Program-made: the position numbers and the translations under genes
Part shown: piece after piece, positions 13,101 through 62,825 of the stretch
How positions within the stretch are numbered: the first letter of the stretch is position 1
Layout: each line of letters opens with the position of its first letter
NCBI GenBank assembly: GCA_021773035.1
Contig: JAJFKU010000052.1
Location: 8,040 to 72,039 of the forward strand
DNA from: Woeseiaceae bacterium
GTDB lineage: Bacteria > Pseudomonadota > Gammaproteobacteria > Steroidobacterales > Woeseiaceae
Length of the DNA: 64,000 bases
Direction: 5' to 3'
Notes under the pieces: generated by a model
Told to the model about the DNA's origin: nothing
Seen by the model: only the letters and a program-made list of their open reading frames with translations
The model's database searches: none

Positions 13101-16100
13101 ATGATCCGTGCGATATTCTTGTTTGTCGTTTGGTTTTCGCTAGCCATAGGCGGCCCTGCGTGGGCTGAAAGCGAGGCATTCGATGGACAGGCGTACGACA
13201 TCGACATACCGGCGCTGAATGCTGCCGAGGCTCTGAACCGTCTCGCGGAACAAACCGGCGCAATCATGCTTTTCCCTTACGATCTTGCCGAAGCCCGACA
13301 AGCCAACGCGGTGCTCGGGCGTTACACCCTGGAGGATGCCCTGGGCGAAATGCTCAGGGACTCTGGACTTTCAAGCGGCCTTTCCGATAAACGCGTGATT
13401 CAAATCGCTCTTGACGAGCCGATGAATCGCAATAAAGGGGAAGAGGAAGTGGCTACTGTAAAAGTATCGCGTAAGAAGACAATCGGCACGTTCGTAGCGT
13501 CACTGTTTATAGCAACGGGAGTGAGTGCGCAGCAATCCGCGACGACGGCGGAAGAAGAGGTCGTGGTTGATGAGATCATTATTACCGGCTCAAGGCTGCA
13601 ACGCGATAGTTTCAATGTCTCGACGCCTCTCGTAAGTATTGGGAATGATGTAATCACGGATACAGGTCTCGGCGCATTGTCCGAGATACTGGTTGACGAG
13701 ATACCGTCGCTCTACGAATCGAGCAGTAATACAAACTCGCAATCGCAGATCGGAAATACCGGAGTTTCATCCGTCAACCTGCGCAGACTGGGAAGTAACA
13801 GGACGCTGGCCCTGATCGATGGCCGCCGTACGGTTGCCAACGCCTATGGCGGCAACTTCATCAGCCTCAACACGATTGCAAAGCCGTTCGTTGATCGCGT
13901 CGAGGTTGTTACCGGTGGCTCTTCAGCGGCATACGGTTCGGATGCGGTCGCCGGTGTGCTCAACATCATTACGGAAAAGGACAAGGTCGGTTTCGGTTTT
14001 GAAACACGCGGTGGTTACACGCCCGAAGGCGGTGGCGAAGAATTCACTATTAACGCGGACTACGGCACTACCTTTTCCGACGACCGCGGCTACCTGTTTT
14101 TTGCGGCAACCTTCGATAAACAGTACGGCATAGATCACGCAGATCGTGATCGGGCCAGACTTGAGTCGAACTTCAGCTATGACGACGATCTGATGTGCAA
14201 TGCGATGCAGACAGAGAACGGCGATGAATGCATGCGAGACATTACGCCCGCGGACTGGCGTGATCGCAACGATGGCACCTTCGGCGGCGTGTTCGAAAGC
14301 ACTGAAGGTGAGTACTACTATGACGAAAACGGCCTGCAGACGGGTTGGTCGGAAGAGCGCGACGGTCTGTTCGCCAGGATCTGGGATGTGATCAAGATTC
14401 CGGAGGAACAGACAGCTGCTGCACTCAAGATCGACTACGAGCTGACGGATAGAACCAAAGTGTATTTCCAGCTGCAGTATAGTCGCAACACTTCATTCAA
14501 CTTCAAGTCGTCAGAAAACGAGGCCGAGAATAATTCGGTTGCAACCATCGATCGTATTACAGGTGCGCCCGACCAGATTACGCCCGGGCATATCTCACTT
14601 ACCAACCCGTTTGTTCCCGTGGAGATTGCTACCGATCCGGAATCGATCGATGACGGGCAGATCGACTGGGACCGTCGTTTTCCCGAGGTGGGCAACATTA
14701 CGACCGACAATACGCGCACAACCTGGCGGAGCTGGGCGGGGTTGCAGGGCGACTTGTTCAACAATGAGTGGGAATGGGACGCGTCCATCGGTTTAGGGCG
14801 TTTCGAGCAACTTCAAATCAGGTCGAATGAAATCGATGTCCGCAAGGAGCGACAGGCTCTGGATGCCATCATCGATCCCGTCGACGGAGTCACTATTCGC
14901 TGCGCCGATGACGCGGCTCACGCGGCAGGCTGTGTACCGCTGAACATATTCGGTGTGGGCTCAGTAACACCCGAAATGGCGGATTGGATTCGCGTTAACC
15001 CGATAATCAATCCCGTCCTGACGCAGATCAACGCGCTGGGATACATTTCCGGCGACCTGTTCGAGATGCCGGCCGGACCCGTCGCAACCGTATTCGGTTT
15101 GGAGTATCGTCGCGACGCGATGGACCTCAGAGTCAGTGACGGACCGGCATTCGGCGGCGTAACGTTTAACCTTGTGCCACCGATCGATGGTGATATCGAC
15201 GTCATCGAACTGTTTTCCGAGGCATCATTTCCGCTGGCTGACAGTCTGTCGGCAGACGTGTCGCTGCGCGTTGCCGACTACAGCGCGAAGAACATCGATA
15301 CGGTATTCAGCCACACCGTAGGTCTGGTTTGGGAGCCGGTCGAAGGTTACGTTCTACGTGGCAATGTTGCTCGGGCGCAGCGGGCACCGGATCTCACGGA
15401 ATTGTTGTCCCCACGGCGCGGTGATTTTGATTCAATCAACGATATTTGCGACGGCGTTTCGGCGACTTCAGATGACGCTGGTCACGATAACTGCCGCCTC
15501 GAACCGGGCATTGCCGCGGCAATCGCCGCCGATCCGGCCTTCGTCTTCGAAGACGATAACAACGGTTATTCGCCGAGCGCGGGAAATGAAAACCTGTTTG
15601 AAGAAACCGCCGATACCTATACTTTGGGTTTCAGTATTTCGCCTTCGTTTTTCGAGGGCTTCCGGCTCGCCGTGGATTATTACGACATCACCATCAGCGA
15701 CGCTATCGCCGAGGTGAGCAATGAGGAGATACTGAACCAGTGTTTCGCTTCCTCAATAAGCTTCGGGGACCCCAATCCGTTTTGCGATGATCTTACCCGT
15801 GACAGCGATGGCCAGCTCACGGAGGTATTGCAGCGACAGTTTAATCTTAACGAACTTAGTACGAGCGGAGTCGACGTTGCGTTGGAGTACGTGCGTGACG
15901 TGGGACCGGGGAAAATTGAGCTAAAGACAAACTACACGCACATCAACAAGCACGAAACGATAATCGACGGTGTCGATGGCATCGTGGTTTCCGACGAAAA
16001 CAATCAGCTCGATTTCGGCATCTTCAAGGATGTAGCTACCGCCTCTGTCGCCTGGAAGTCCGAGAACTGGCGGGTTCGATGGCGCACGACCTGGAAGGGT

Positions 16101-16451
16101 CCGATCATCGATCACCAGGAACGTGTCGATGAGTATCTCTCGCTAAAGGCCACGAACGATGGACTGTGTGCGGCGGGTGACCCGGATTGCATAACCAATC
16201 CGGAGGTCCCGGCGTTTCTCTTCTACCCGTCATATCTGAGGCACGACCTGTCGCTTTCCTACGATATGGAATTGGAGAGTGGCGCGAAAATAAACCTCTT
16301 CAGCGGAGTCAGAAATCTGTTCGACAAAGACCCGTTTGTCCCGCGTACCGGCGACAACTTTGAGTCTGGAATTGGCAACTACGACAGCAAGTTCGGGGGC
16401 GGTGTTGGACGTTTCGTATACTTCGGCGCGGAAGTGCGTTTTGACGACTGA
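13101..16451 (+). CDS. TonB-dependent transducer (receptor with N-terminal STN signalling domain)
   Basis: STN domain (IPALNAAEALNRLAEQTGAIMLFPYDLAEARQANAVLGRYTLEDALGEMLRDSGL), plug (IIITGSRLQRDSFNVSTPLVSI) and a large barrel. The C-terminus ends ...AEVRFDD rather than on an aromatic residue. Confidence 0.9.
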   Translation: MIRAIFLFVVWFSLAIGGPAWAESEAFDGQAYDIDIPALNAAEALNRLAEQTGAIMLFPYDLAEARQANAVLGRYTLEDALGEMLRDSGLSSGLSDKRVIQIALDEPMNRNKGEEEVATVKVSRKKTIGTFVASLFIATGVSAQQSATTAEEEVVVDEIIITGSRLQRDSFNVSTPLVSIGNDVITDTGLGALSEILVDEIPSLYESSSNTNSQSQIGNTGVSSVNLRRLGSNRTLALIDGRRTVANAYGGNFISLNTIAKPFVDRVEVVTGGSSAAYGSDAVAGVLNIITEKDKVGFGFETRGGYTPEGGGEEFTINADYGTTFSDDRGYLFFAATFDKQYGIDHADRDRARLESNFSYDDDLMCNAMQTENGDECMRDITPADWRDRNDGTFGGVFESTEGEYYYDENGLQTGWSEERDGLFARIWDVIKIPEEQTAAALKIDYELTDRTKVYFQLQYSRNTSFNFKSSENEAENNSVATIDRITGAPDQITPGHISLTNPFVPVEIATDPESIDDGQIDWDRRFPEVGNITTDNTRTTWRSWAGLQGDLFNNEWEWDASIGLGRFEQLQIRSNEIDVRKERQALDAIIDPVDGVTIRCADDAAHAAGCVPLNIFGVGSVTPEMADWIRVNPIINPVLTQINALGYISGDLFEMPAGPVATVFGLEYRRDAMDLRVSDGPAFGGVTFNLVPPIDGDIDVIELFSEASFPLADSLSADVSLRVADYSAKNIDTVFSHTVGLVWEPVEGYVLRGNVARAQRAPDLTELLSPRRGDFDSINDICDGVSATSDDAGHDNCRLEPGIAAAIAADPAFVFEDDNNGYSPSAGNENLFEETADTYTLGFSISPSFFEGFRLAVDYYDITISDAIAEVSNEEILNQCFASSISFGDPNPFCDDLTRDSDGQLTEVLQRQFNLNELSTSGVDVALEYVRDVGPGKIELKTNYTHINKHETIIDGVDGIVVSDENNQLDFGIFKDVATASVAWKSENWRVRWRTTWKGPIIDHQERVDEYLSLKATNDGLCAAGDPDCITNPEVPAFLFYPSYLRHDLSLSYDMELESGAKINLFSGVRNLFDKDPFVPRTGDNFESGIGNYDSKFGGGVGRFVYFGAEVRFDD

Positions 16452-38869: not shown

Positions 38870-39044
38870 CTTGCTCTCCGGTTTCCCTCCAATATTGCAC
38901 GTATAACGGCGCAAAAAAAGGACTAGCGAAATCGAGTGCTGGAACTGCTTTTTTTGCATAAGGACTGAACGCCGCCTTACGGCTGCCGGTTTGTTGCTAC
39001 AATCGGAGCAGATTTTCGTTTCTGACAGAGGCAACAGGGGCGGC

Positions 39045-40301
39045 ATGAAAACACAGTTATCTGACCACGGCGGGATATGCACCCAGGCTCTGCGAGGCAC
39101 GCTACTGGTGTTCGTTATCACATCGAGTGTTTTCCCCGCAACCGCCGACGGCGCGACACCGAACACGCAAGCAGAACCGACGCATATGTCAGAGGCACAG
39201 CGTTCTGCAGTTAAAAAACTGGTCGTCCTGCCGACCGAGACGCCCCCGGAAGGCGTCGTGACCGGTACCTTCCAGAAGGAAACTTACGGCGTACTCGATG
39301 GTATGGATGATGGTCGCAAGTACGGCAGAGGTATCTCAACCGATGTCGGCGGGGTCCGTGTTAGCTATCCGATTCCGATATTAACGTTGCCCGGCATGCT
39401 GCTCGGCGGGCTGACCGGTGGTACCAAGCGTGCGATCCAGGATTTTCGTGACGAGCTCACGGAGGATCTGGCGGAAGCGGCAGGACGCACGCTGACCAAC
39501 GATGCGCTGGCATCTGACGTCTTCTGGGGGCTGCGCAATGTCCCCACCCTGGATTCAAAGATATTCGCTCTGACGACACCGATTCCCGAAGACGTCGACG
39601 CCGTTTTGTTTGTCAGCATGACGGGCATACAGATTGAGGTGCAGGACAAGGAAGCTATAATCACCACGACCGGCAATGGCACGTTGCGCCGTATCAGCGA
39701 TGGGCAGGATATCTACACCGCCAGTGTATTTTACGAGGATAGAGATACGCTGGTCGACTGGACCAGGAACGATAATGCGGCGTGGCACGACTACGCTCAG
39801 TTCGCCCGGCACTATATCGGTCGTGAGATATCGGCCCAGATCGCGGAACGGGTCGACCTCAATCGGGATATGAAACCGATAGAATCCGAGAATGTCGATA
39901 CGGTCAAGAAGAACGACTGGCAGGGTGTCAGCAAAAACAGGATGCCTACGCTCGCCTGGCAGCACCAGCTACTGGGCGGTGATGCGAACGGTGTCCAGGC
40001 GGACGAGATCGGCGCATCAGATGTTTCCTACGAGATTGAAATATACGATTTGCATCAGCCCGTTTATTCAGCGAAAAACCTGCCTGAGGCCAAGCATGTG
40101 CTCCCCGTGGAACTGGACTGCAAGACCTATCGCTGGTCGGTACGGCCGGCATACCGTATTGACGGCGTCATGCAGTACGGTGACTGGATGAGATTCGATT
40201 CGGAGGCCGGAGGAAACGGCAATGTCGGTAGCAAAGCGTCCGAGCTGCCGGCCTATATCCGGGATTTCGCATCGCTGGAGATCAAATGCCGACGCCGCTA
40301 G
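39045..40301 (+). CDS. Hypothetical secreted protein
   Basis: Signal-like N-terminus (LRGTLLVFVITSSVFPATADG). No family recognised. Confidence 0.55.
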   Translation: MKTQLSDHGGICTQALRGTLLVFVITSSVFPATADGATPNTQAEPTHMSEAQRSAVKKLVVLPTETPPEGVVTGTFQKETYGVLDGMDDGRKYGRGISTDVGGVRVSYPIPILTLPGMLLGGLTGGTKRAIQDFRDELTEDLAEAAGRTLTNDALASDVFWGLRNVPTLDSKIFALTTPIPEDVDAVLFVSMTGIQIEVQDKEAIITTTGNGTLRRISDGQDIYTASVFYEDRDTLVDWTRNDNAAWHDYAQFARHYIGREISAQIAERVDLNRDMKPIESENVDTVKKNDWQGVSKNRMPTLAWQHQLLGGDANGVQADEIGASDVSYEIEIYDLHQPVYSAKNLPEAKHVLPVELDCKTYRWSVRPAYRIDGVMQYGDWMRFDSEAGGNGNVGSKASELPAYIRDFASLEIKCRRR

Positions 40302-51081: not shown

Positions 51082-53142
51082 CTAGAAGTGATAGCTGATG
51101 CCGACCTTGAGTGTTCGCTCAGCACCGTAAAGCCGTGTCCCAACGGCGATATCGGAACCCATGGCGCGATTGATACCGGCCAGATGGTCCTGATACGTGG
51201 TATCGAACAGATTTTCGACATGGGCTTCGAGCTGAACCGAGGAGGCAGGCGACCAGGAAAACCCGAGGTTAAATATTTCGTATGCTTCGGTCTGCTGTTC
51301 TGCATTGAACGCAGAAACGTCTTTCTGGCTGGCATAGGCAACAAAGCGCGTGTTCAGCGACCAGGTATCGGCGTTGTAAACCAGGCCCAGGCTGCCGTTA
51401 AAGGGCGCAAGCCGGTAGAGGTTGTCCGAAACATCCGTGCGGCGTCCTCGCGAGTAGTTCGCGATACCGTCCAGCTTCAGTCGCTCGGAAATGTCGAAAG
51501 TCCAGGCCACGTCCACGCCCCAGATGTCGGCATCGGTGTTTGCGAACTGTAGTGCGGGCTGCCCGGTCATCATGGTCGAAACCATGTTGGCCATTGCATT
51601 AGTGGCGGGAACGCCCTGTATGAAACCATCGATCCGTTTGAAATAGATCTGCGGCGCCAGGTTGAAGCGCCCGATCGAGGCAAACAAGCCGATGTTCACT
51701 TCGTGCGCCTTCTCGGAATCGAGCGTCAGGTCGCCGATGTACGTCCGTCCATCGGCCAGCCCGCCGGTTGCCTGCAGTGGTAACCATAAATACAGCTCCT
51801 GGTAAGACGGTGCTCGTGATTTTTGTCCGAGTTCGAATTGCCATTCAAGTTCACTGCTGGTCCGGTAACTGTATTTGACGACAGCATCGATATCGTCGAA
51901 ATCCAGGTCGCGTGTGGCGGCGTTGAACATCGTGGCCAGGTTCTGCGGCCCGGCATTCATCATTCCGCTTACCCCGACATCGCCGGCGTCGCTGCTTACG
52001 CGTTTGAACCTGAGCCCGAGTTCGATATCTGACGATTGCCCCTCGAGTGTCCACTCGCCAAATGCGCTGATGAGGTCTCTCTGCACGTCCGAGAAGTTGA
52101 TGACCCGGAACGCTGCATTGTTGGGATTGGTGATGATCGAATCATGTTCGGCGAAAACCCCGTCAAGACCGACCTTCAGCGATGACGACTCCAGATCGAC
52201 GGTCCCGGCCAGGGTCAGTGTTTCACCGCTGCCCGTGGCTCTATTCTGGCGATACATCATCGGCATGGGTGCCTGGCGATAGGAGAAGTTGTCCATTAGA
52301 TGGTCAACGTCGTTTACCGAGAGGCGACCCTCGATTGTCAGCGCTGGCGATAGCGCGTACTGGAAATGGCCACCGGCGAGGTCGGTCTCGATGAAAAGAA
52401 TGTCCATCGGTAGCGCCGGGGTTCCGGAATCCACCGTGTCCAGCCTTCCTGCGAAAACTACGAGATGATTGTCACCGGCGGCATACGCGTAGCTCAAATC
52501 GTAGCGCTTCCGGTCAACTCCCGAAGGGCGGATAGTTCCGGCTGGCGTCTCTATATCGGAACCGGAATCCACCTCCGAGATTGCAGAGATACGATGGGAC
52601 TGATTGGACAAAGTCAGCCGGCCGGCGGACGTCCCGACGTCTCCATTCTGCGAATAGCGTGAGCCGAGAAACCCGGACAGCTCGAAGTCGCTAGCAGCGA
52701 ATTCGCCACGCGCCATGCTGGTTCTGATGTGACCGCCGATGGACTCAGCGGCCGAAGTGACGCTCGCAATGCCGCGCTCGACTTGCAGCGATTCCGTAAT
52801 CATCGGTGAGACGTAGCTAATCGGCGCGTCCATCGCGTTCGGACCACCGGAGACGATTGCGTGGTTGTCGATCGTGATTGCTACACGGTCGCCAAACATG
52901 CCGCGGTATTGAGCGATACCGGTAATCGGACCGTTGCTATTGACGTTTGCGCCGGGCAGGTTCTTGAGCGCAGCCGCGGTGTCGACGAGTAACTCTTGCT
53001 CGACGTTGATATCTAGTGCGCGCGTCGTGACGGAATGTCCGGCGACGATGATTTCGTCAATCGTTTCCTTCGATTCTTCGGCCGACACGCCGATAGGGCA
53101 GACAACGAGCAGCGCGACCGCTGCTTTCATTGGCAGTTTCAT
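51082..53142 (-). CDS. TonB-dependent receptor (metal, possibly copper, by context)
   Basis: Signal peptide, plug (DEIIVAGHSVTTRALD), barrel and terminal ...GISYHF. Lies downstream of a DUF2946-like His-rich gene. Confidence 0.88.
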   Translation of the reverse strand: MKLPMKAAVALLVVCPIGVSAEESKETIDEIIVAGHSVTTRALDINVEQELLVDTAAALKNLPGANVNSNGPITGIAQYRGMFGDRVAITIDNHAIVSGGPNAMDAPISYVSPMITESLQVERGIASVTSAAESIGGHIRTSMARGEFAASDFELSGFLGSRYSQNGDVGTSAGRLTLSNQSHRISAISEVDSGSDIETPAGTIRPSGVDRKRYDLSYAYAAGDNHLVVFAGRLDTVDSGTPALPMDILFIETDLAGGHFQYALSPALTIEGRLSVNDVDHLMDNFSYRQAPMPMMYRQNRATGSGETLTLAGTVDLESSSLKVGLDGVFAEHDSIITNPNNAAFRVINFSDVQRDLISAFGEWTLEGQSSDIELGLRFKRVSSDAGDVGVSGMMNAGPQNLATMFNAATRDLDFDDIDAVVKYSYRTSSELEWQFELGQKSRAPSYQELYLWLPLQATGGLADGRTYIGDLTLDSEKAHEVNIGLFASIGRFNLAPQIYFKRIDGFIQGVPATNAMANMVSTMMTGQPALQFANTDADIWGVDVAWTFDISERLKLDGIANYSRGRRTDVSDNLYRLAPFNGSLGLVYNADTWSLNTRFVAYASQKDVSAFNAEQQTEAYEIFNLGFSWSPASSVQLEAHVENLFDTTYQDHLAGINRAMGSDIAVGTRLYGAERTLKVGISYHF

Positions 53143-53733: not shown

Positions 53734-54309
53734 CTAGTAGGTGGATTGCTCGAGAAAGGCGGCCAGATCGGACTTTGCCGACGCCTGTTTGTCCCAGGGC
53801 TCATACGACTCTGGCCGGGTCCCGGTCGTCTGCACGCGTACTTCCGTAGCGGCAGCAACGAGCCGGAGCTGATCGATGGTCACCTCGTAATAGGCATCGG
53901 CCGCTGACGCGACAGGCTGAGTATACACGCGCTCGCTGGCGCCAATAGCATCGGCGGTCCAGCCGGATACCTGCAGCGGCAATGGCTCACCATCGGCGTA
54001 AATGACGATGGACTGGAAGCCATCACGCAGTGCCGGCGACTCCGCTGCGACCATCGTGTTCCAGATGCCCAGCCACAGGTAGTAGCGATAGTCGCCCATG
54101 CGGTTGATCTCCAGTGGGCCCAGATACAGATAGTCTCTCGCGAATGCCGCTCTGCCGGATTCGTCACGGTAGAAAACAAGAGGTGTCTGGCTATAGGTGA
54201 TGGTTACCGCGGTCGCCGGATCGAGCTTATTTCTGGTAATGCCGCCATCGTTCGCGCAGCCGCTCAGAAGCAGCGCAATTGCCGCAGCGTTAACGGCGGC
54301 GATTCTCAA
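53734..54309 (-). CDS. Lipoprotein, last gene of the multiheme cytochrome operon
   Basis: Lipobox (IALLLSGCANDG). The TTG start overlaps the upstream TGA (TTGA). No family recognised. Confidence 0.7.
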   Translation of the reverse strand: MRIAAVNAAAIALLLSGCANDGGITRNKLDPATAVTITYSQTPLVFYRDESGRAAFARDYLYLGPLEINRMGDYRYYLWLGIWNTMVAAESPALRDGFQSIVIYADGEPLPLQVSGWTADAIGASERVYTQPVASAADAYYEVTIDQLRLVAAATEVRVQTTGTRPESYEPWDKQASAKSDLAAFLEQSTY

Positions 54310-56759
54310 AAGAACACCTGGTAGCCGAGGTTGATGAAATGGGATTCACGATCCAGATCGTTCCCCTGTATTTCCTGCTGTGAAAACTGTTTTCCCGTTT
54401 CGAGGTCTATGCGGAATTTCTGGCTACGACGGTATTGTAGGCGAAAACCTGGTGTGTAAAGCCATTCATAGCCTGAGTTGCCCAACCGTTCCCGGCGATC
54501 AACGCGCAGTCTCGGGTTGATACGCCAGGATTTCCCGAAAGGAAAGCGGCTGTCGAAAGACAGCGATGCTACTCGAGAGGTATCAGAGTTTGAATAACGC
54601 ACGGTAATGATCGACACATCGCCTTCTTTCAAAAGGCTGCTGGCAACGATGCTGCCCGAGTAGTAGTTGTAGGAAGTTGCCGGAGTATCGAGCACGCCAC
54701 CCGATGCCGGCGTGCCGTCCGTCGTCGATTGGGTCATGTCTGCATTGATCTGCAATTTGGGTGACAGGGGGTAGGACATGCCTATCGTATAAGATGTCGA
54801 TTGTGCAGTACGATCCTGGCCGAGCTGCCGCAGTTCATGCTCGCTGAAAATCGCTGTGAGTTCTGTGAACGACACGACCGGTTGACCGATCATCGCGTTC
54901 CCCGCGCTCAAGAACGGGTTTCCGCGCCGGTCGACAAGCGCATGAATGGAAAGGCGGGAATCGAAACGCCAGCTGCCTTGCAGGAAAGCACTGGCAAGTT
55001 CGCCAAAACCCAGATCGTAGTCAATTTGCGCCCAGAGGTTGCGATTCGTACCAAAGTAACGCAGTTCGCCGCCGACGGCCCGGCGGTCCTGAATACCCTC
55101 AATATTCTGCTCTATAAAGAACAAACCGAGATCGAGTCCGTCGAAAACAGGCCCGTAGTTCAGACTGGCACCGTAAAAAGTTCGTTCGTCATCGATGCTG
55201 TCCGACGACGAGTACGCCGGCTTTCCCGCGACAGCGTTGACGAGGATTCTCTCATTGAGCTCATAGCCGAGGTTCAATCCGTCGAAGCGGCCGAGGACAC
55301 CGCCAGTGTTCCGGGACTGGCGCCCGATTCGACCGCGCAGTCCGGTTACGGCGTCTGCCAGATCGGCGTACGCATACGAGATTCGTGTGCTATTGCCGGA
55401 ACTGGTCGTACTATCCAGAAAATCATTGCGATAACCGGCAGACAGCCGACTGCTGAAGTCAAAGCGGTCACCGCGCCGGCGGGCGTCGAAATTAATGTCG
55501 GAATACAATGCCGATTGACTGATGATTTCTTGCTGATCGTTCTGCTGGTTCGCATCCCGTCGGTAGTATTGCGAGAAGAATGTCTGGATTCGCCAGTCGC
55601 TGCGCTGAGCAGCTCGAGAATTCCCGGCAGCCGGAGATGAGCCCGTCGCACCGCTTTGTCTGCCGCTGGAGAGCAGCGCGGCGAGTCGCTGGCGGACCCG
55701 GTTCGCACCTTCGCTATCGGGGTAGAGTGAGAGATAGCGCTCATACTCTGCTTTTGCGTGTGCGGTTTGCCCTTTCTTTTCTCTCGCCAGGGCCAGGTAT
55801 TCCTGAGCTTCCGCCTGGCGTGGATGCTCCGGTAACTGCAGAATCTTCGTGTAGATTTGTACGGCCCTGGATGTGTCTCCGGCGATCATCGTCTTACGGG
55901 CATCCTCCATCAAAACGTCGATCCTCGAACCCGCGCTGACTCCCTCAGCGACGTCTTCAGTCTGCGTCGTCTGCTTCGACGTAGCGATAGTGGTTGAAAC
56001 TGCGTCGCCGTCCTCCCGGTCAATCCAGGCGCCGGGGAACGTCGCCGTCAGGGCGGCCAGCGCTCTATTGGCAGCGTCGGCCGAAGCGAAGTCGCCGAAC
56101 CGCAGCCGATACCAGGCAATCCCGTCAATGACCACCTCCTTGTAGAAAAGGCGTTGTCCGTCCTCAAGTTGCAGGTCGAGGGCATCAGCCAGCGTCGGCG
56201 TGCGTCGCAACGATGCCAGATTAATCACCCAGTTAACCGTCGCTATCGGCGCTTGCAGAACCTGCCGATGAAGGATGTCCGATTCACGCCCGGTTTCGGC
56301 CTTGCCGGACGACTGCCCGGCCTCCGGCCTGACGTGTACAACAAGTTCAAATGACAGCGCCGCCATATCGATGTCAAATTCGACTGGCTCGCTGAATATC
56401 AGCGTCAATACGGAGCCCGCGGCCGATTCACCATCGTATTCAAGTTCGAGCAGATGAGCGTTGTCCGAATTGAACGGTCGTAGCCGGGTTTTCGATCTGG
56501 CGACGGTTGGCGACACGCCGTTGCAGATGCTGCTCGGTTCGAGGAAAACGCGCAGGCGATCGCCGCCGCCGAGTGGTTCATGTCGCAGGTATTGTGTTTT
56601 GCAGTTGAACCGAACGTGGATGTCGGCATCAGCAGGTTCGCCCGACTCCGCTGTCGAGACTCGCGAACTGCCGATAAAACCGGGGGCGGCAATGGCGAGC
56701 GACGCCATCTGGATGAGTAGCGCACCACCAAACCACAGAGCAAACCGCCGAGCTACCAT
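54306..56759 (-). CDS. Outer-membrane protein: signal peptide + SPOR-like domain + TPR + about 430-aa C-terminal beta-barrel
   Basis: Signal (LWFGGALLIQMASLAIAAPG), SPOR-like stretch (WVINLASLRR...IAWYRLRFGDFASADAANRALAALTATFPGAWI) and TPR (AVQIYTKILQL...EYERYLSLYPDS). The C-terminal half has alternating amphipathic strands and ends ...NLGYQVFF. Confidence 0.8.
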   Translation of the reverse strand: MVARRFALWFGGALLIQMASLAIAAPGFIGSSRVSTAESGEPADADIHVRFNCKTQYLRHEPLGGGDRLRVFLEPSSICNGVSPTVARSKTRLRPFNSDNAHLLELEYDGESAAGSVLTLIFSEPVEFDIDMAALSFELVVHVRPEAGQSSGKAETGRESDILHRQVLQAPIATVNWVINLASLRRTPTLADALDLQLEDGQRLFYKEVVIDGIAWYRLRFGDFASADAANRALAALTATFPGAWIDREDGDAVSTTIATSKQTTQTEDVAEGVSAGSRIDVLMEDARKTMIAGDTSRAVQIYTKILQLPEHPRQAEAQEYLALAREKKGQTAHAKAEYERYLSLYPDSEGANRVRQRLAALLSSGRQSGATGSSPAAGNSRAAQRSDWRIQTFFSQYYRRDANQQNDQQEIISQSALYSDINFDARRRGDRFDFSSRLSAGYRNDFLDSTTSSGNSTRISYAYADLADAVTGLRGRIGRQSRNTGGVLGRFDGLNLGYELNERILVNAVAGKPAYSSSDSIDDERTFYGASLNYGPVFDGLDLGLFFIEQNIEGIQDRRAVGGELRYFGTNRNLWAQIDYDLGFGELASAFLQGSWRFDSRLSIHALVDRRGNPFLSAGNAMIGQPVVSFTELTAIFSEHELRQLGQDRTAQSTSYTIGMSYPLSPKLQINADMTQSTTDGTPASGGVLDTPATSYNYYSGSIVASSLLKEGDVSIITVRYSNSDTSRVASLSFDSRFPFGKSWRINPRLRVDRRERLGNSGYEWLYTPGFRLQYRRSQKFRIDLETGKQFSQQEIQGNDLDRESHFINLGYQVFF

Positions 56760-59536
56760 TCTTTGTCGCTGATTCTATGGCAGCCGCTGCTGGCACAGTT
56801 CAGATCGTTTGCCAGACCGTTGTGATCGTCCTTGTCAGCTTTGTAATCTCTCGCATGGCATCCGGCACAGGTTGGCTGATAACCCGGCGAGGACCAGCTT
56901 ACGACTTCCGTGTTGCTGCGATGGCAGTCCGTACAGGCAAAGTTCCCGCGATGATCGAGCGGTTCGTAGGTGAGCCCGCTATGACTGTAGTCGGCGGGTG
57001 TCCAGGCGTTGGGACTGTGACATAAACCACAGTCCTGGCTGGTGTTGAAGTGTCCCGGGTTCTGTCCCGTCGCCTGGATTCCATTGTGGCAGGATGAGCA
57101 GGAGCCGAGCACCTGGTTGTGGTCGACGGCCACAACGGGAATCCAGACGGTCGGACTGTGACAGTCTTCGCAGACGTTCGTCGTTTGCACGTGAGCCGGT
57201 CCTTTGCCGGTCGCGTCGCTGCCGTTGTGGCAGCTTGAACAGTTGTCCACGATATTCGTATGGTCGAAATTAGCCGGTGTCCACGCGACTGTCGTGTGAC
57301 AGTCGTCGCAGTTGTTGCCGCTCGCGATATGTGTCGGATGTTTGCCGATGGCAAGCGTGCCGTTGTGGCAGGAGCTACAGGCGCCGAGAACCTGCGTGTG
57401 GTCAACCGTGTAGGGTGGAATCCAGGTATTCGGTGTATGACAGTCTTCGCAGACGGTGCTCGTCTGAATGTGATTCGGGTTTTTGCCCGTTGCATCGGTG
57501 CCGTTGTGGCAATTCGCGCAGTTGCCGGTGATATTGATGTGATCGAAATTGGCGGGCAGCCAGGCTGTCGTTGCATGGCAATCGTCACAGTTATTGCCGC
57601 TGCTAATGTGGGTTGGATTCTTACCGGTAGCCTCGACGCCATTGTGGCAGCTGACGCAATTACCCGTGATGCCGACATGGTCGAAATTGGCCGGCAGCCA
57701 GGCAACGGTGGAGTGGCAGTCATCACAGCTGTTGCCGCTCGTGATGTGCGCCGGATGTTTGCCGGTCGCGCTTACGCCATCGTGGCAGGAGCCGCAGGAG
57801 CCAAGCACCTGGGTATGGTCGACGTTGATAGCGGGCGCCCAGGTATTGCTGCTGTGGCAGTCTTCGCAGACATTGCTGGTCTGGATGTGTGCCGGGTTTT
57901 TGCCGGTGGCGTCGACACCGTTGTGACAGCTGACGCAATTGCCGGTGATGCCAACGTGGTCGAAGGTCGCCGGCCGCCAGGCAACAGTGGAATGGCAGTC
58001 GTCGCAGGTATTCGGGCTTGTGATATGTGTAGGATGCTTGCCGATTGCGGTAATGCCATCGTGACAGGAGTTACAGGTGCCGATGACCTGTGTGTGATCG
58101 ACGGTAAAGGCCGGCGCAAATACGTTCGTGTTGTGACAGTCTTCGCAGACATTACTGGTCTGGATATGTGCCGGGTTTTTGCCGGTCACGTCGACACCGT
58201 TGTGGCAGTCGACACAGTTCCCGGTGATGTTGAGGTGATCGAAGTTCGCCGGTAACCAGCCAAGGGTTGAATGGCAGTCATCGCAGGTGTCGCCGCTGTT
58301 GATATGATCCGGCGTCTTGCCGCTTGCGGTCAGGCCATCGTGGCAGGAGCCGCAGGCACCGATGACCTGCGTGTGATCGACCGTATCTGCCGGCACGAAG
58401 ACGTTGGTGTTGTGGCAGTCCTCGCAGGTAGCCGTCGTCTGAATATGAGAGGGGTTCTTGCCGGTCACGTCGACACCGTTGTGACAATTGACACAATTGC
58501 CGGTGATTTCCGAATGGTTGAAATTCGCGGGCAGCCAGGCAAGCGTCGAGTGACAATCGTCACAATTCGTGCCACTCGGGATATGTGTGGGGTTCTTGCC
58601 TTCAGCGGTGATTCCGTCATGGCAGGAGCCGCAACTTCCGAGGGCCTGCGTATGATCAACGGTGAGTGCTGGCGCCCATACATTCGGGTTATGACAATCC
58701 TCGCAAACATCGGTAGTCAAAACGTGTGTCGGGTTCTTTCCAGTGGCTTCAACGCCGTTGTGGCAGCTGACACAGTTTCCCGTGATATTCACATGATCGA
58801 AGTTGGCGGGCAGCCAGCCGACTGTCGAGTGGCAATCGTCGCACTGATCACCGCTGCTGAGATGGGTTGCATGTTTACCGGCCGCGGATACGCCGTTGTG
58901 GCAGGATCCGCAGGTTCCCAGTACCTGCGTATGGTCAACGGTGAACGCCGGTTCAAAAGTGATCGTACTATGACAGTCTTCGCAAACATTCGTCGTTTGC
59001 ACGTGCGATGGACTCTTGCCGACTGCAGTCAGCCCATTGTGGCAGCTCACGCAATTGCCGCTGATACCCGCATGGTCGAATGTAGCCGGTGTCCATCCGC
59101 TCGTGGTATGGCAGTCGTCGCACTGATCGGTTGACGAAATGTGGGCCGGTGTTTTGCCGCTTGCCTGAACCCCGTTGTGGCAGCTGACGCAGTTGCCGGT
59201 CAGCGACGAATGATCGACATAGGTGACAATGCTCCAGGCTGCGGTGATATGACAGTCCGAACATTCTCCAACCGTCGAGACGTGATTCGATGGTTTCGAC
59301 GATGCGCGTACCAGGCTGCTCTGAGAGTGACAACTGGTGCAGGTCGAATTGGTGGGGCCAAACGTGCCGCTGACATGGCAGCCCTCGCAAGTGACGTTGG
59401 TATGCGCGCCATCTAGAACGAAGCCGGTACTGAAATGGTCGAAGCTGGTTTGTGAGAGCGCGTCAGTGGATACGAACAGTCCAGACAACATGATGGCCAG
59501 GATTAGAGCGCCGCTACCTAAAACAGTGGTCTTCAT
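56753..59536 (-). CDS. Giant secreted multiheme c-type cytochrome (37 CXXCH + 1 CX4CH)
   Basis: Sec signal (MKTTVLGSGALILAIMLSGLFVSTDALSQ). I counted 37 CXXCH plus a terminal CASSGCH. From motif 5 to motif 35 the spacers are 18 or 19 residues, each carrying one conserved His (FDH/VDH or GK.P.H). Confidence 0.9.
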   Translation of the reverse strand: MKTTVLGSGALILAIMLSGLFVSTDALSQTSFDHFSTGFVLDGAHTNVTCEGCHVSGTFGPTNSTCTSCHSQSSLVRASSKPSNHVSTVGECSDCHITAAWSIVTYVDHSSLTGNCVSCHNGVQASGKTPAHISSTDQCDDCHTTSGWTPATFDHAGISGNCVSCHNGLTAVGKSPSHVQTTNVCEDCHSTITFEPAFTVDHTQVLGTCGSCHNGVSAAGKHATHLSSGDQCDDCHSTVGWLPANFDHVNITGNCVSCHNGVEATGKNPTHVLTTDVCEDCHNPNVWAPALTVDHTQALGSCGSCHDGITAEGKNPTHIPSGTNCDDCHSTLAWLPANFNHSEITGNCVNCHNGVDVTGKNPSHIQTTATCEDCHNTNVFVPADTVDHTQVIGACGSCHDGLTASGKTPDHINSGDTCDDCHSTLGWLPANFDHLNITGNCVDCHNGVDVTGKNPAHIQTSNVCEDCHNTNVFAPAFTVDHTQVIGTCNSCHDGITAIGKHPTHITSPNTCDDCHSTVAWRPATFDHVGITGNCVSCHNGVDATGKNPAHIQTSNVCEDCHSSNTWAPAINVDHTQVLGSCGSCHDGVSATGKHPAHITSGNSCDDCHSTVAWLPANFDHVGITGNCVSCHNGVEATGKNPTHISSGNNCDDCHATTAWLPANFDHINITGNCANCHNGTDATGKNPNHIQTSTVCEDCHTPNTWIPPYTVDHTQVLGACSSCHNGTLAIGKHPTHIASGNNCDDCHTTVAWTPANFDHTNIVDNCSSCHNGSDATGKGPAHVQTTNVCEDCHSPTVWIPVVAVDHNQVLGSCSSCHNGIQATGQNPGHFNTSQDCGLCHSPNAWTPADYSHSGLTYEPLDHRGNFACTDCHRSNTEVVSWSSPGYQPTCAGCHARDYKADKDDHNGLANDLNCASSGCHRISDKEW
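57030..59120. repeat. Diverged tandem coding repeat, about 279-bp (93-aa, 4-heme) period, about 7.5 copies
   Basis: Repeating protein unit CDDCH-x18-CV(S/N/D)CH-x18-CEDCH-x19-C(G/N/S)SCH-x18. Nucleotide copies appear roughly 75-85% identical by eye, e.g. around 57640-57720 versus 57910-57990. Confidence 0.8.
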
Positions 59537-61104
59537 TGCAGCGTTCTCACTTCTCTGAACGATTCGGCTGTGTGGCAGCGGCCACAGTCGGAGCCGAATT
59601 CATCGTCATGCACATCATCAGCGCGATGACAGCTCCCACAGCTACCGTCGATGGTCTTCATCCGGTCCAGTGAGCTGCGGTGACAGTCACTGCAGGCGAC
59701 CGTCGTATGGGCACCTTGCAGCGGGAAAGCGGTTTGCTCCTTATGATCGAAAATCCACAGCTCCCATCCCACCGGGTTGTGGCAGGAGCCGCAGCGCTGC
59801 GGGAAGTTGCCGCGGTGTGGGTCGTCATCGATATGGCAGGACGTGCAGTCACTCTCGGCGTTGGCGAAAGCCTGCGTTTCATGGCAGTCCTCGCATTCGT
59901 TGCCACGATGTGCGCCAAGTAGCGGAAACCGCGTGAGATCGTGATCGAAGAAGATCGGGTCCTGCCAGGTTACTTCCGTGTGGCAGCTCTCACACAGGGT
60001 ACCCAGCGTGCCCTCGTGAACATCATCGTCGATATGGCAGGACTCACAGCCAGTCGTTAACGTTACTTCGAAGATGGGTTCGACGTGGCAGTCGTTACAC
60101 GCCACCTCCGCATGTGCACCAAGAATCTCATAGTCCGTGTCCTGGTTGTGGTCGAAGCCCGGCTCTGACCAGGCATCGTTGTTGTGACAGGTATCGCATT
60201 GATCGCCGTTATGCCCGCCATGGTCGTCGTCCTCGAGGTGACAGGAGACGCAGGCCATGTCCATAACGTCCTCGAACGGCGTTTCCGAATGACAGTCATT
60301 GCAGGAAAGCTCGGCATGCCTGCCGAGCAGTTCGAAATCGGTATCGCGGGCGTGATCGAAACTCGAGTCGTGCCAGTCACCGGGATTGTGGCAGTTTCCG
60401 CAATCATTGCCGCTGCGACCGTTATGGGCATCGTCTTCGGCATGGCAGTCGAAGCAGGCGCTCGCCGGAGCCGGCAGAAATGTCCTGTCTTCATGACAGT
60501 CCAGGCATGCGGCCTCGCGGTGTTGTCCGAGCAGGGGGTAGTCCGTCGTGTCATGGTCGAATTCTGCGTCCAGCCACTCAACCGGCCGGTGGCAGGTAGC
60601 GCAATCAGTCGCCATTGTGTCCTGATGTGGCTCGTCCTCGCTATGGCAATCGACGCAATCCGAGGCGACCGCGCGGTGCTTTTCTCCGCGGTCATGACAA
60701 TCACCGCAGTCGGCATCTTTGTGAGCACCGAGAAGTTCAAAGTCAGTAAAGGCGTGATCGAACGAATCTTCGTCGAGAATGACGACGATCGCGTCTCGCC
60801 CCTCGTGTTCCGTATGACATGACGAACACTGTTCAATGCTTGCCTCGGTATGCAGGCCATGAAAACCGAAGCTGTCGTTGACGTCTGCAGCGACATCCTC
60901 ATGGCAGTCAAGGCACAGCTCGCGTTGCGCCTGTTTGTCGAACATTTTGTGGCACGAAGAACATTCGTTTTCCAGCTCTGCGTGTCCGACAATGACCTTG
61001 CCGGGCATGACCAGGGTTTCAATATCCTGAGCGGATGCCTTTTCTGATGTCATGAACGTCGTCATTAGGATTAATCCAAACGATATATATCGCCACAAAA
61101 TCAT
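59533..61104 (-). CDS. Secreted 21-heme c-type cytochrome built from seven c7-like triheme units
   Basis: Signal (FGLILMTTFMTSEKASAQD). I counted 21 CXXCH. They repeat as a triplet unit C..CH-x11/12-C..CH-x13-C..CH-x26/27, with FDH..T.F.L.G.H between units (doubled-CXXCH / cytochrome c7 style). Confidence 0.9.
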   Translation of the reverse strand: MILWRYISFGLILMTTFMTSEKASAQDIETLVMPGKVIVGHAELENECSSCHKMFDKQAQRELCLDCHEDVAADVNDSFGFHGLHTEASIEQCSSCHTEHEGRDAIVVILDEDSFDHAFTDFELLGAHKDADCGDCHDRGEKHRAVASDCVDCHSEDEPHQDTMATDCATCHRPVEWLDAEFDHDTTDYPLLGQHREAACLDCHEDRTFLPAPASACFDCHAEDDAHNGRSGNDCGNCHNPGDWHDSSFDHARDTDFELLGRHAELSCNDCHSETPFEDVMDMACVSCHLEDDDHGGHNGDQCDTCHNNDAWSEPGFDHNQDTDYEILGAHAEVACNDCHVEPIFEVTLTTGCESCHIDDDVHEGTLGTLCESCHTEVTWQDPIFFDHDLTRFPLLGAHRGNECEDCHETQAFANAESDCTSCHIDDDPHRGNFPQRCGSCHNPVGWELWIFDHKEQTAFPLQGAHTTVACSDCHRSSLDRMKTIDGSCGSCHRADDVHDDEFGSDCGRCHTAESFREVRTLQ

Positions 61105-61122: not shown

Positions 61123-62028
61123 TTAGTACATGTGCACTGCGAGCACGTGAAAGAGGGCGGATATAACAAGAAGAATAAACAGTGGCATGTGAAAAATGTG
61201 CCACAGCGAAAACAGGCGTTCGTAAAACGCCAGCTGCGCGACCTGCCGCATTAGCCCGGTTTGTTGGGCTGCGTAAGCATTCGCAGTTTTTCGGAGGTGT
61301 CTGGTATTGCTCATTACCACTTCGGATACGGCTGCTTTTTCACGCAGCTCCTTGTTAATCTGGACGTATAGGCGCAGCCGGACGATGTAGTACCTGAACG
61401 TCCAGGACAGGCTGTGCCGCAGGCTGATCGAGCGTGTAATTTCGTCGCCCGTCAACCTGGACGAAACCTTATGTAACTCGTGGATGAAACCCGGCATGAT
61501 CGCCGCCAGCCCACGGCTGTTGCCAAGGGCGTCGGCTATTTCTTCGCGCAGCTCTTCTATGCTGGCTCGCTTACCGTACAGACCACGGTGGATTCGGGTG
61601 TAGAAGTAGCGACCGACGATGCCGCTTATTGTGACGGCCAGCATACTGTACAAGGCAACCTTGCTGTTCAGCGCGTCGACACTGAAATTACAATGATAGA
61701 GAATCAGTGCCGGACCCACGAGTCCGAAAATCATGTGGATGCGAAACCAGTGTTTGACCAGGCCAAGTCGCCGCAGTATCGATGACTTCTTTCCGGCTGG
61801 ATAAAGAAGCAGAAGCAACATCAGCGAGCCACCAACGATTCCGAGCCAGTAACCGACGCCCTCTTCGGGATTGACCAGCTCGGTTTCGCGCAGGAACCAG
61901 CCGGCAACGACGGTGATGGCCAATAACAGGTAGCCATAGACACCTCGCCCTGACCGTTTACGAGATACTTTGCCAGCATCAACTTTCGCTTGCGTCGCAG
62001 CTACTTCGCTTACCGTCGTATCGATCAT
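61123..62028 (-). CDS. His-rich 5-TM inner-membrane protein (candidate b-type cytochrome / quinol-interacting module)
   Basis: TM helices YLLLAITVVAGWFL, WLGIVGGSLMLLLLLY, HWFRIHMIFGLVGPALILYH, LYSMLAVTISGIVGRYFY and LFSLWHIFHMPLFILLVISALFHVLAVH, with a soluble loop of about 110 aa. Conserved-looking intramembrane His pairs are present. Confidence 0.7.
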   Translation of the reverse strand: MIDTTVSEVAATQAKVDAGKVSRKRSGRGVYGYLLLAITVVAGWFLRETELVNPEEGVGYWLGIVGGSLMLLLLLYPAGKKSSILRRLGLVKHWFRIHMIFGLVGPALILYHCNFSVDALNSKVALYSMLAVTISGIVGRYFYTRIHRGLYGKRASIEELREEIADALGNSRGLAAIMPGFIHELHKVSSRLTGDEITRSISLRHSLSWTFRYYIVRLRLYVQINKELREKAAVSEVVMSNTRHLRKTANAYAAQQTGLMRQVAQLAFYERLFSLWHIFHMPLFILLVISALFHVLAVHMY

Positions 62029-62825
62029 TTACTGTATTCGTCTTGTTCTATTATCAGCGTCAGATGTTGGTTCTCGGCGACTCTGACGACCTCCGACTTC
62101 GCCTCGAGCCCCTGCAGGGTGGCAGTGGCGTCCCCGGATCGCGTGATTCGTGCCGTAACGATGACTTCCTCGACGTCGGAGAGCTTCATGTCGGCAGTCA
62201 TTGCCTGGCTATCATTCAGCGAGAAGTCGATCGGCAGCTCGGCTGCAGGTCGTTTCAGAACGGCTACGGGCATTGGCGATCCGTTGACGGCACGGGCAAA
62301 GATAAAAACCGTATCGGTCGGATTAACGAAACTCCTGGCTTCCGGCGCCAGGCTGACGTTACCGGATATCTGCGCGGCGGACGTGCCTGTCACGTTTTCC
62401 CCAGAGTTCAGCGCCGCCAACTCCGCATCAACCTGTCCCAGCGCGGCTGCTTTTGCATAGGCGTCGACGGCTTCGTCGAGTCGTCCGAGATGTCGATAGG
62501 AGCGCGCCAGCAGTAGCCAGCTGCCGCCATCGTTCGGATCGTCCTGCAGGCGTGCAGCCAGGCCGTCGACCATGCTCGCGACAGAGGCGATCTTTGTGTT
62601 GTTCGGTGCATTCGACGCGGTGTTTGACGGCAGGTGGGGTGGCTCGCCGGCCGTGCCTGAGCCTGGCGAGCCGAGTTTCATGTAGATCCCGAAGGCGACT
62701 ACCGGCAGCGATACGCAGACCACGAGCAACAAGGGCTTGCGATTCTCCTTAAGCAACGGCATTGCAATAAAGCCCAGCGCCACCGCTGCCATTACCGCTA
62801 CTAAAACCCAAAACAATCCGGCCAT
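62025..62825 (-). CDS. ccmI: CcmI/CycH-like c-type cytochrome biogenesis (apocytochrome chaperone) protein
   Basis: Two N-terminal TMs (FWVLVAVMAAVALGFIAMPLL; LLLVVCVSLPVVAFGIY) and TPR (GGSWLLLARSYRHLGRLDEAVDAYAKAAAL). The C-terminal region (VFIFARAVNGSPMPVAVLKRPAAELPIDFSLNDSQAM...VTARITRSGDA) is typical of CcmI. Confidence 0.65.
   Translation of the reverse strand: MAGLFWVLVAVMAAVALGFIAMPLLKENRKPLLLVVCVSLPVVAFGIYMKLGSPGSGTAGEPPHLPSNTASNAPNNTKIASVASMVDGLAARLQDDPNDGGSWLLLARSYRHLGRLDEAVDAYAKAAALGQVDAELAALNSGENVTGTSAAQISGNVSLAPEARSFVNPTDTVFIFARAVNGSPMPVAVLKRPAAELPIDFSLNDSQAMTADMKLSDVEEVIVTARITRSGDATATLQGLEAKSEVVRVAENQHLTLIIEQDEYSK

Follow-up and report, generated by a model that had tools for sequence, protein, structure and literature searches.

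A SPOR, TPR and beta-barrel protein as the probable outer-membrane component of a PCC3-type porin-cytochrome cluster in Woeseiaceae

Introduction

The MtrCAB, MtoAB and PioAB systems share a proposed logic, in which a periplasmic multiheme cytochrome is paired with an outer-membrane barrel and, in MtrCAB, with an extracellular cytochrome. MtrB is a 26-strand, barrel-only protein without periplasmic domains, and we know of no peptidoglycan-binding module in Mtr. The PCC3 systems were defined by comparative genomics as sets of a porin, an "extracellular" cytochrome, a "periplasmic" cytochrome and an inner-membrane protein of about 300 amino acids (aa), with medians of 34 hemes in the "extracellular" and 21 hemes in the "periplasmic" cytochrome (He et al. 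2017, PMC5566968). Here, we analyze a 64,000-nucleotide (nt) stretch of contig JAJFKU010000052.1 from a Woeseiaceae bacterium (assembly GCA_021773035.1), referred to below as the window, which encodes an 817-aa protein that combines SPOR and TPR-like domains with a C-terminal beta-barrel in an operon with two giant multiheme cytochromes. We conclude that this protein is probably the outer-membrane component of a PCC3-type porin-cytochrome system, in which it would form a passage or port for a heme wire.

Several features recur in the described PCC3 clusters. The inner-membrane protein has five helices, with an SGxxG motif on helix 4 and WX3HX13H motifs on helices 3 and 5 (PMC5566968). In the Riftia endosymbiont, one cytochrome carries 21 hemes in seven 66-aa repeats and the other 39 hemes spaced about 23 aa apart (He et al. 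2017, PMC5566968, supplementary figure 1). The porins were assigned "up to 42" transmembrane regions by PRED-TMBB, with 40 in the Riftia symbiont and 22 in Leptothrix cholodnii (He et al. 2017, PMC5566968), and published cartoons show the outer-membrane protein as a very large porin. In Sideroxydans lithotrophicus the genes Slit_1446-1449 encode, in order, the inner-membrane protein, the periplasmic cytochrome, the extracellular cytochrome and the porin. A comparative study of Woeseiaceae reported mtrCAB-type genes and did not report PCC3. Within the searchable library that we consulted, we found no mention of SPOR, TPR or peptidoglycan in connection with PCC3.

Results

The operon has the features of a PCC3 cluster

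A preliminary description of the window, made from the sequence, had placed the open reading frame at 54306-56759 and had tied the barrel to the two giant cytochromes, calling the protein unusual. The reading frame proved exact (minus strand, 817 aa), and the tie to the cytochromes is upheld by translational coupling and by an arrangement that is kept in nearly every related locus with enough flank. The operon itself, which had not been recognized as such, matches a PCC3 cluster. It consists of six minus-strand genes that are joined by overlaps of 4-7 nt or separated by an 18 nt gap, the barrel gene being the fifth (Table 1). The barrel gene overlaps both of its neighbors: its first 7 nt coincide with the end of the 37-heme cytochrome gene, and its last 4 nt with the start of the lipoprotein gene.

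The order of the operon core (membrane protein, 21-heme cytochrome, 37-heme cytochrome, barrel) equals that of Slit_1446-1449. The 301-aa membrane protein contains the WX3HX13H motif at aa 94 (WFRIH..13..H) and at aa 276 (WHIFH..13..H), and SGIVG at aa 135. The cytochromes hold 24.9 aa per heme (21-heme cytochrome) and 25.1 aa per heme (37-heme cytochrome); a low aa-to-heme ratio marks the second cytochrome of PCC3. Inner-membrane motifs, heme counts and spacing, and gene order all fit the PCC3 definition. The four-gene order, the inner-membrane motifs and the 21-heme, seven-repeat cytochrome are common to this operon and to the PCC3 clusters of Sideroxydans (Slit_1446-1449), Leptothrix cholodnii SP-6 and the Riftia endosymbiont. 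In both, a second cytochrome carries dozens of hemes, one for every 25 aa or so, and the 22 strands given for the L. cholodnii porin equal the strand count predicted here. The operon differs in adding a CcmI-like gene and a lipoprotein gene, neither of which is listed as a PCC3 component. The CcmI/CycH-like protein may serve the giant cytochromes as an apocytochrome chaperone of their own, and the lipoprotein, for which no relative was found in Pfam, NCBIfam or PDB, may be a fifth or sixth PCC3 component.

We surveyed the best 80 loci from species-representative genomes and judged the neighbors wherever enough flank was present. With one exception (L060, see Discussion), the membrane protein, the 21-heme cytochrome and a second cytochrome are encoded directly upstream of the barrel gene wherever the flank suffices. 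The surveyed loci belong to Woeseiaceae, Sedimenticola, Chromatiaceae, Thiogranum, Ectothiorhodospiraceae, Thiohalobacterales, Nitrospirota and Desulfuromonadaceae bins and the isolate Hyphococcus luteus. The first cytochrome has 21 hemes in almost every locus, whereas the second varies from 5 to 57 hemes (loci L001-L084); in the Solemya pervernicosa gill symbiont, a 69-heme, 1,694-aa cytochrome lies directly upstream of the barrel gene (L084 2897-7981). The constant 21-heme cytochrome together with a variable second one suggests a fixed periplasm-spanning unit plus an adjustable outer unit. In nearly all Woeseiaceae-type loci that reach past the barrel gene, the next gene downstream encodes a lipoprotein homolog, as it does in about a third of the distant loci (16 of L039-L083). 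The CcmI/CycH-like gene at the head of the operon is kept in the Woeseiaceae loci and in the distant loci L051, L063, L065, L075, L078 and L080. Outside this core the flanks hold ordinary metabolic genes that change from locus to locus. Neither near the operon in the window nor in the related loci inspected did we find a glycosyltransferase or a polysaccharide synthase. A tblastn search against plasmids gave no match.

A large family with a common architecture

A word-indexed search returned more than 1,100 full-length homologs of the 817-aa protein, and an exhaustive profile search returned 2,335 clusters at 50% identity (E <=1e-3), 1,088 of them at E <=1e-30. The closest homologs (59-68% identity over the full length) belong to Woeseiaceae and to unclassified gammaproteobacterial metagenome bins, and their annotation goes no further than "SPOR domain-containing protein" or "TPR repeat protein". 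We scanned 128 near-full-length representatives with domain models built from close homologs. The TPR module and the barrel were found in all 128, and SPOR in 100, in one to four copies each. The combination of SPOR, TPR and barrel is the rule in this barrel family and is not peculiar to the 817-aa protein. The preliminary description had called the combination unusual, which holds in comparison with MtrB, PioB and OmbB but not within the PCC3-type family, where TPR plus barrel is universal and SPOR is present in the majority.

Domain layout of the 817-aa protein

An AlphaFold2 model was built from an alignment of 38 homologs (mean predicted local distance difference test, pLDDT, 75.9; predicted template modeling score, pTM, 0.45). 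About half of the protein is predicted to be periplasmic, comprising a beta-sandwich, the SPOR domain and the TPR-like module. Three linkers are seen in the model (aa 146-176, 261-275 and 365-388), of which aa 146-176 is of low confidence. The preliminary description had put SPOR, TPR and a C-terminal barrel in one polypeptide, and Pfam, the CpoB match and AlphaFold2 bear this composition out, the TPR part as a TPR-like module. Its SPOR stretch (about nt 56024-56234) coincides with an above-threshold Pfam hidden Markov model match at nt 56022-56234, and the C-terminal ~430 aa, ending in GYQVFF, are predicted by AlphaFold2 to form the barrel it had proposed, with a topology of 22 strands. The beta-sandwich (aa 29-145) and a helical insert in the barrel (aa 614-652) are extra parts that it did not contain.

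Table 1. Coordinates of the operon genes and of the parts of the 817-aa protein, as positions in the window.
Feature	Residues (aa)	Position (nt)	Strand	Basis or remark
CcmI/CycH-like protein (TPR_CcmH_CycH + Ig_CycH), first operon gene		62025..62825	minus	Pfam/NCBIfam
Inner-membrane protein, five hydrophobic segments, putative di-heme b	301	61123..62028	minus	Motif scan
Multiheme cytochrome, 21 CxxCH, 7 triheme units of ~68 aa; counterpart of the PCC3 "periplasmic" cytochrome	523	59533..61104	minus	
Multiheme cytochrome, 37 CxxCH spaced 23-24 aa; counterpart of the PCC3 "extracellular" cytochrome	927	56753..59536	minus	
Whole open reading frame, probable outer-membrane component of the PCC3-type cluster	817	54306..56759	minus	ATG start
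Sec signal peptide, MVARRFALWFGGALLIQMASLAIA followed by AP (cleavage AIA/AP)	1-24	56688..56759	minus	Sequence inspection; AlphaFold2 helix aa 2-18
N-terminal periplasmic beta-sandwich (predicted)	29-145	56325..56675	minus	AlphaFold2 strands, pLDDT 77-89
SPOR domain (Pfam match aa 176-246 = nt 56022-56234)	176-260	55980..56234	minus	PF05036
TPR-like helical module, five helices, ~2.5 repeats	276-364	55668..55934	minus	Sub-threshold Pfam, CpoB match, AlphaFold2
C-terminal beta-barrel (predicted), ~22 strands, ends FF	389-817	54309..55595	minus	AlphaFold2 DSSP, Foldseek, weak OMP_b-brl Pfam match
Most conserved motif of the family, RIGRQSRNTGGVLGRFDG	477-494	55278..55331	minus	End of strand 5, following loop, start of strand 6
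Conserved helical insert between barrel strands 13 and 14	614-652	54804..54920	minus	AlphaFold2 helices aa 619-623, 631-637, 640-649
Lipoprotein, lipobox LSGC	191	53734..54309	minus	Translationally coupled to barrel gene

The SPOR domain

The SPOR domain matches PF05036 at 31.8 bits (E 1.8e-7), above the curated cut-off of 21, and AlphaFold2 predicts the SPOR fold over aa 177-260. A profile of the SPOR segments of the family also matches the solved DamX SPOR domain (2lfv, E 2.8e-6). The key glutamine of SPOR domains (Q270 in RlpA, Q251 in FtsN) contacts the lactyl carboxylate of peptide-free glycan, the serine position makes a backbone contact, and W283 of FtsN, in beta3, provides a further contact (Alcorlo et al., PMC6895207). 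In this profile alignment, N180 and S183 of the 817-aa protein align with DamX Q351 and S354, and the family motif N-L-x-S falls on Q351-L-S-S354. We collected 119 SPOR segments from 99 family members, 92 of which could be aligned at the Gln and Ser positions. The position of the key glutamine is Asn in 75 and Gln in 13 of these (Asn or Gln in 88/92), and the position of S354 is Ser or Thr in 81. The beta3 strand reads W-Y/H-R-L-R-x-G-F-F, with the tryptophan present in 90, the second arginine in 116 and the glycine in 118 of the 119 segments. S183, W216, R218 and R220 of this conserved face are present in the 817-aa protein, and N180 stands for the glutamine. Because Asn/Gln, Ser/Thr and the beta3 residues are kept across the segments, the SPOR binding face is, judging by these alignments, under selection despite the Asn in place of the canonical Gln. 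A tether of the heme wire to peptidoglycan through SPOR can reasonably be inferred from the conserved binding face.

The 817-aa protein belongs to the same fold family as FtsN, DamX, DedD and RlpA, and of the glycan-facing beta-sheet residues it keeps S183, W216, R218 and R220. These proteins are inner-membrane-anchored or lipoproteins (PMC6895207), whereas here SPOR is fused to an outer-membrane barrel encoded in a cytochrome operon. Most members of the barrel family have Asn in place of the key Gln. Since all known SPOR proteins work in division or morphogenesis (PMC6895207), a barrel from a cytochrome operon is an unusual context for this domain.

The TPR-like module and the beta-sandwich

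About ten TPR-type Pfam models match aa 284-360 with scores below their gathering thresholds, the best being TPR_9 (24.8 bits versus 35). The CpoB TPR domain (6g5s) matches the same stretch of the 817-aa protein with an E-value of 2.4e-5, and a search of the family profile against PDB sequences matched CpoB (6.8e-5) and BamD (2.6e-4) in the TPR region, and also YbgF. The five helices of the module are predicted with pLDDT 85-90. Some family members are annotated as "BamD" in databases; we rejected this name on the grounds of no family match and a cytochrome neighborhood.

The beta-sandwich was found in 92 of the 128 representatives by the domain-model scan. Its Cys53 and Cys79 are invariant across the 38 close homologs and recur in part of the wider family, which suggests a periplasmic disulfide. 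No significant Pfam match was obtained for this domain in the 25 members scanned, and no PDB sequence was matched by its profile. A single weak AMIN-like match (E 0.011), in one of these 25 members, is only a hint.

The barrel

AlphaFold2 places 22 beta-strands over aa 389-815, mostly with pLDDT 75-92, and three short helices between strands 13 and 14. Foldseek comparison of the full model with the PDB returned only outer-membrane barrels, as generic matches with low TM-scores. PgaA (4y25), AlgE and PelBC are among them, at TM-scores (0.13-0.26 on the query) no higher than those of general porins, Campylobacter MOMP, the ushers FimD and PapC, and OprC; MtrB was not among the best 50 matches listed. 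At E up to 1, no match to MtrB_PioB, BcsC, PgaA, PelB or Slam/DUF560 was found in Pfam and NCBIfam. When all PDB sequences were searched with a profile built from 32 diverse members, the matches were to SPOR (DamX, and weakly DedD) and TPR domains, and no barrel relative appeared.

The two most conserved segments of the barrel are the motif at aa 477-494 and the helical insert. The motif, with the consensus RxGRQSxxxGGVLGRFDG, is centered on the loop joining strands 5 and 6, and G479, R480, Q481, G487, D493 and G494 are invariant in 128 diverse members. In the insert, P615, N621, G625, Q626, L634 and R650 are at least 90% conserved in the family. Both segments are candidate contacts for a cytochrome.

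Two groups of known proteins resemble parts of this layout. In Slam and in the polysaccharide exporters BcsC, PgaA and PelB, an N-terminal periplasmic TPR region is followed by a C-terminal barrel. The TPR-like module and predicted barrel of the 817-aa protein stand in the same order, but the barrels of those proteins have 14-18 strands and their TPR arrays are long, compared with ~22 strands and ~2.5 repeats here. Around the barrel gene lie cytochrome genes, and neither synthases nor surface-lipoprotein/receptor pairs. To our knowledge, none of BcsC, PgaA, PelB and Slam carries SPOR. OmpA, through its C-terminal domain, and PilQ, with AMIN, are outer-membrane channels with a wall-binding module of their own, as is proposed here, by which a trans-envelope machine keeps a fixed place at the peptidoglycan; they use OmpA-like or AMIN modules and other channel folds, whereas the 817-aa protein has SPOR. 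The cytochromes of MtrCAB, MtoAB and PioAB have 10 hemes, compared with 21 and 37 in this operon.

Discussion

The 817-aa protein is probably a typical member of the known, predicted PCC3 system, to which our analysis adds the periplasmic architecture. In the PCC3 publications the outer-membrane protein is simply a porin, whereas here about half of it is periplasmic and the barrel has ~22 strands. This periplasmic architecture appears to be undescribed. The published counts of 40-42 strands for PCC3 porins are probably over-counts, in which PRED-TMBB likely scored the strands of the beta-sandwich and SPOR as well. If half of the protein is a wall-binding and docking module, the structural model of the system shifts to a barrel of ~22 strands, not 40.

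How these parts might work together we infer from the predicted architecture, and this applies to trans-envelope electron transfer, its direction and substrate, the choice of the cytochrome that sits in the barrel, and peptidoglycan binding. The heme wire would start at the 301-aa membrane protein, whose putative two b-type hemes could link it to the quinone pool. The CcmI-like protein would act as the cytochrome-maturation helper of the operon. The 21-heme cytochrome would be long enough to span the periplasm, and the ~22-strand barrel would provide an insulated passage or port for the heme wire through the outer membrane. The N-terminal half of the 817-aa protein would hang into the periplasm on its flexible linkers. 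Directly beneath the barrel, the TPR module would be a likely docking site for a cytochrome or the lipoprotein; further in, at about the depth of the peptidoglycan, SPOR could bind denuded (peptide-free) glycan strands, and the beta-sandwich would be the innermost domain. SPOR may thereby fix the conduit to the wall, or set it at amidase-opened patches that let the long, rigid cytochrome pass the sacculus.

From this we tentatively advance a general picture, which we regard as possible rather than probable, of PCC3 conduits as wall-anchored trans-envelope machines. Each would have a 22-strand port, one to four SPOR domains to find or hold denuded, amidase-opened patches and a TPR module docking the 21-heme wire, and would assemble where the wall is open, possibly at septa and new poles. 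The model predicts binding of SPOR to amidase-treated sacculi, binding of the TPR module to a cytochrome, and possibly conduits at septa or poles. If true, no SPOR domain before it would have had a role beyond division or morphogenesis, and no earlier porin-cytochrome system would have carried its own means of getting a rigid heme wire of ~20 nm through the sacculus.

Several observations weigh against the assignment of the 817-aa protein as the port of a trans-envelope conduit. PCC3 is a predicted system whose function is unverified even for its type examples, and the extracellular location of its large cytochrome is a published software prediction only. The 37-heme protein carries a plain Sec signal and lacks a lipobox. 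The two PCC3 clusters of S. lithotrophicus ES-1 are not induced by Fe(II), and the "extracellular" cytochrome went undetected in S. lithotrophicus proteomes. The porin, the inner-membrane protein and the periplasmic cytochrome were detected there, which counts in favor of the assignment. In Sideroxydans CL21, expression of both PCC3 copies lies above the mean. Membership in PCC3 was judged here by architecture, motifs and gene order. The matches listed from a homology search started with a groundwater member, and from cluster look-ups, contained no Sideroxydans or Leptothrix sequence; the named relatives in the genome and homology searches were Thiogranum longum, the Solemya symbiont and Hyphococcus luteus. 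Within the protein, the key SPOR glutamine is an asparagine (N180), each single TPR match in Pfam falls under its gathering score, and the pTM of 0.45 leaves the relative positions of the domains in the model undefined. Finally, L060 (9353-12268, CP070738.1) encodes a 971-aa TPR-plus-barrel paralog with no cytochrome genes within 9 kilobases (kb). The neighbors of this paralog are a beta-CASP RNase, a LuxR regulator and FtsH, and it is the only such orphan among the loci with enough flank.

The main rival explanation is that the barrel chiefly exports and assembles the giant second cytochrome, as an usher-like or Slam-like port, and is not a permanent sheath. The TPR module would then take up the cytochrome, already folded and loaded with heme, from the periplasm and pass it through the barrel to the surface, while SPOR steadies the port on the wall. 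The gene just upstream of the barrel gene always encodes a size-variable cytochrome (5-69 hemes), which fits a port and its cargo, and the TPR-plus-barrel layout is shared with Slam and the polysaccharide exporters. The Sec signal is the only export signal of the 37-heme protein and no type II secretion genes adjoin the operon, although this negative covers the 64-kb window only and such genes may lie elsewhere in the genome. The Foldseek list has the pilus ushers FimD and PapC near its top, but this similarity is generic (TM-scores 0.2-0.3, root-mean-square deviation >12 Å), and at E up to 1 neither a Slam/DUF560 nor an usher family was matched in Pfam/NCBIfam. We consider the export port unlikely as the principal role of the barrel; it overlaps with the sheath model, and sequence alone cannot separate the two. 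A more distant proposal, which we think improbable, is that the cytochromes are a purely periplasmic store or wire and that the SPOR-TPR-barrel protein organizes the envelope or serves uptake in the manner of CpoB and Tol-Pal, or is a solute channel. This would agree with the work of known SPOR proteins in division or morphogenesis (PMC6895207), with the nearest relatives of the TPR module being CpoB/YbgF and BamD, with PCC3 expression in Sideroxydans that does not track Fe(II) oxidation, and with the orphan paralog at L060. However, the barrel gene is linked to those for the membrane protein and both cytochromes almost universally across phyla, with translational coupling, and no division or Tol-Pal genes lie nearby. 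The barrel is also much larger than a solute channel needs, and conservation in it is highest at a loop between strands and at the helical insert and does not mark out a generic porin eyelet.

The preliminary description had suggested a recruited secretion-type barrel and, as its alternative, that the operon exports something else. A polysaccharide export barrel of the BcsC/PgaA/PelB type, with an operon that exports a polymer, would share the TPR-plus-barrel layout, and PgaA, AlgE and PelBC do appear among the Foldseek matches. Yet their scores are no better than those of porins, ushers and TonB-dependent receptors, the Pfam/NCBIfam and PDB profile searches gave no BcsC, PgaA or PelB family and no barrel relative, and the conserved neighbors are cytochromes, with no glycosyltransferase or synthase genes near the operon or in the related loci inspected. 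We rejected this identity on the absence of family matches and on the cytochrome neighborhood, and regard it as extremely improbable; the recruited secretion-type barrel is not supported. The grounds on which the preliminary description would have been given up were homology to a polysaccharide exporter with synthesis genes nearby, or the lack of a predicted barrel; we found neither such homology nor such genes, and a barrel is predicted.

The widespread PCC3 clusters are candidate systems for exchanging electrons between bacteria and minerals, and the conservation of the cluster in Woeseiaceae, a cosmopolitan sediment family whose members are among the most abundant bacteria of marine sediments, raises the question of electron exchange with solid phases.

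Other genes of the window

A TonB-dependent receptor is encoded just downstream of the operon (51082-53142, minus strand). The model nearest to it is that of a copper receptor, with a score below the cut-off. The same neighbor is present in a subset of the Woeseiaceae loci (L006, L007, L013, L017, L020, L025 and L038), outside the conserved core. Pfam gave no match at E up to 1e-5 for two large open reading frames elsewhere in the window, 6816-9185 (plus strand, 789 aa) and 38991-40301 (plus strand, 436 aa). A second TonB-dependent receptor, of 1,116 aa (13101-16451, plus strand), has an unusually long N-terminal extension, with the plug starting from aa 174.

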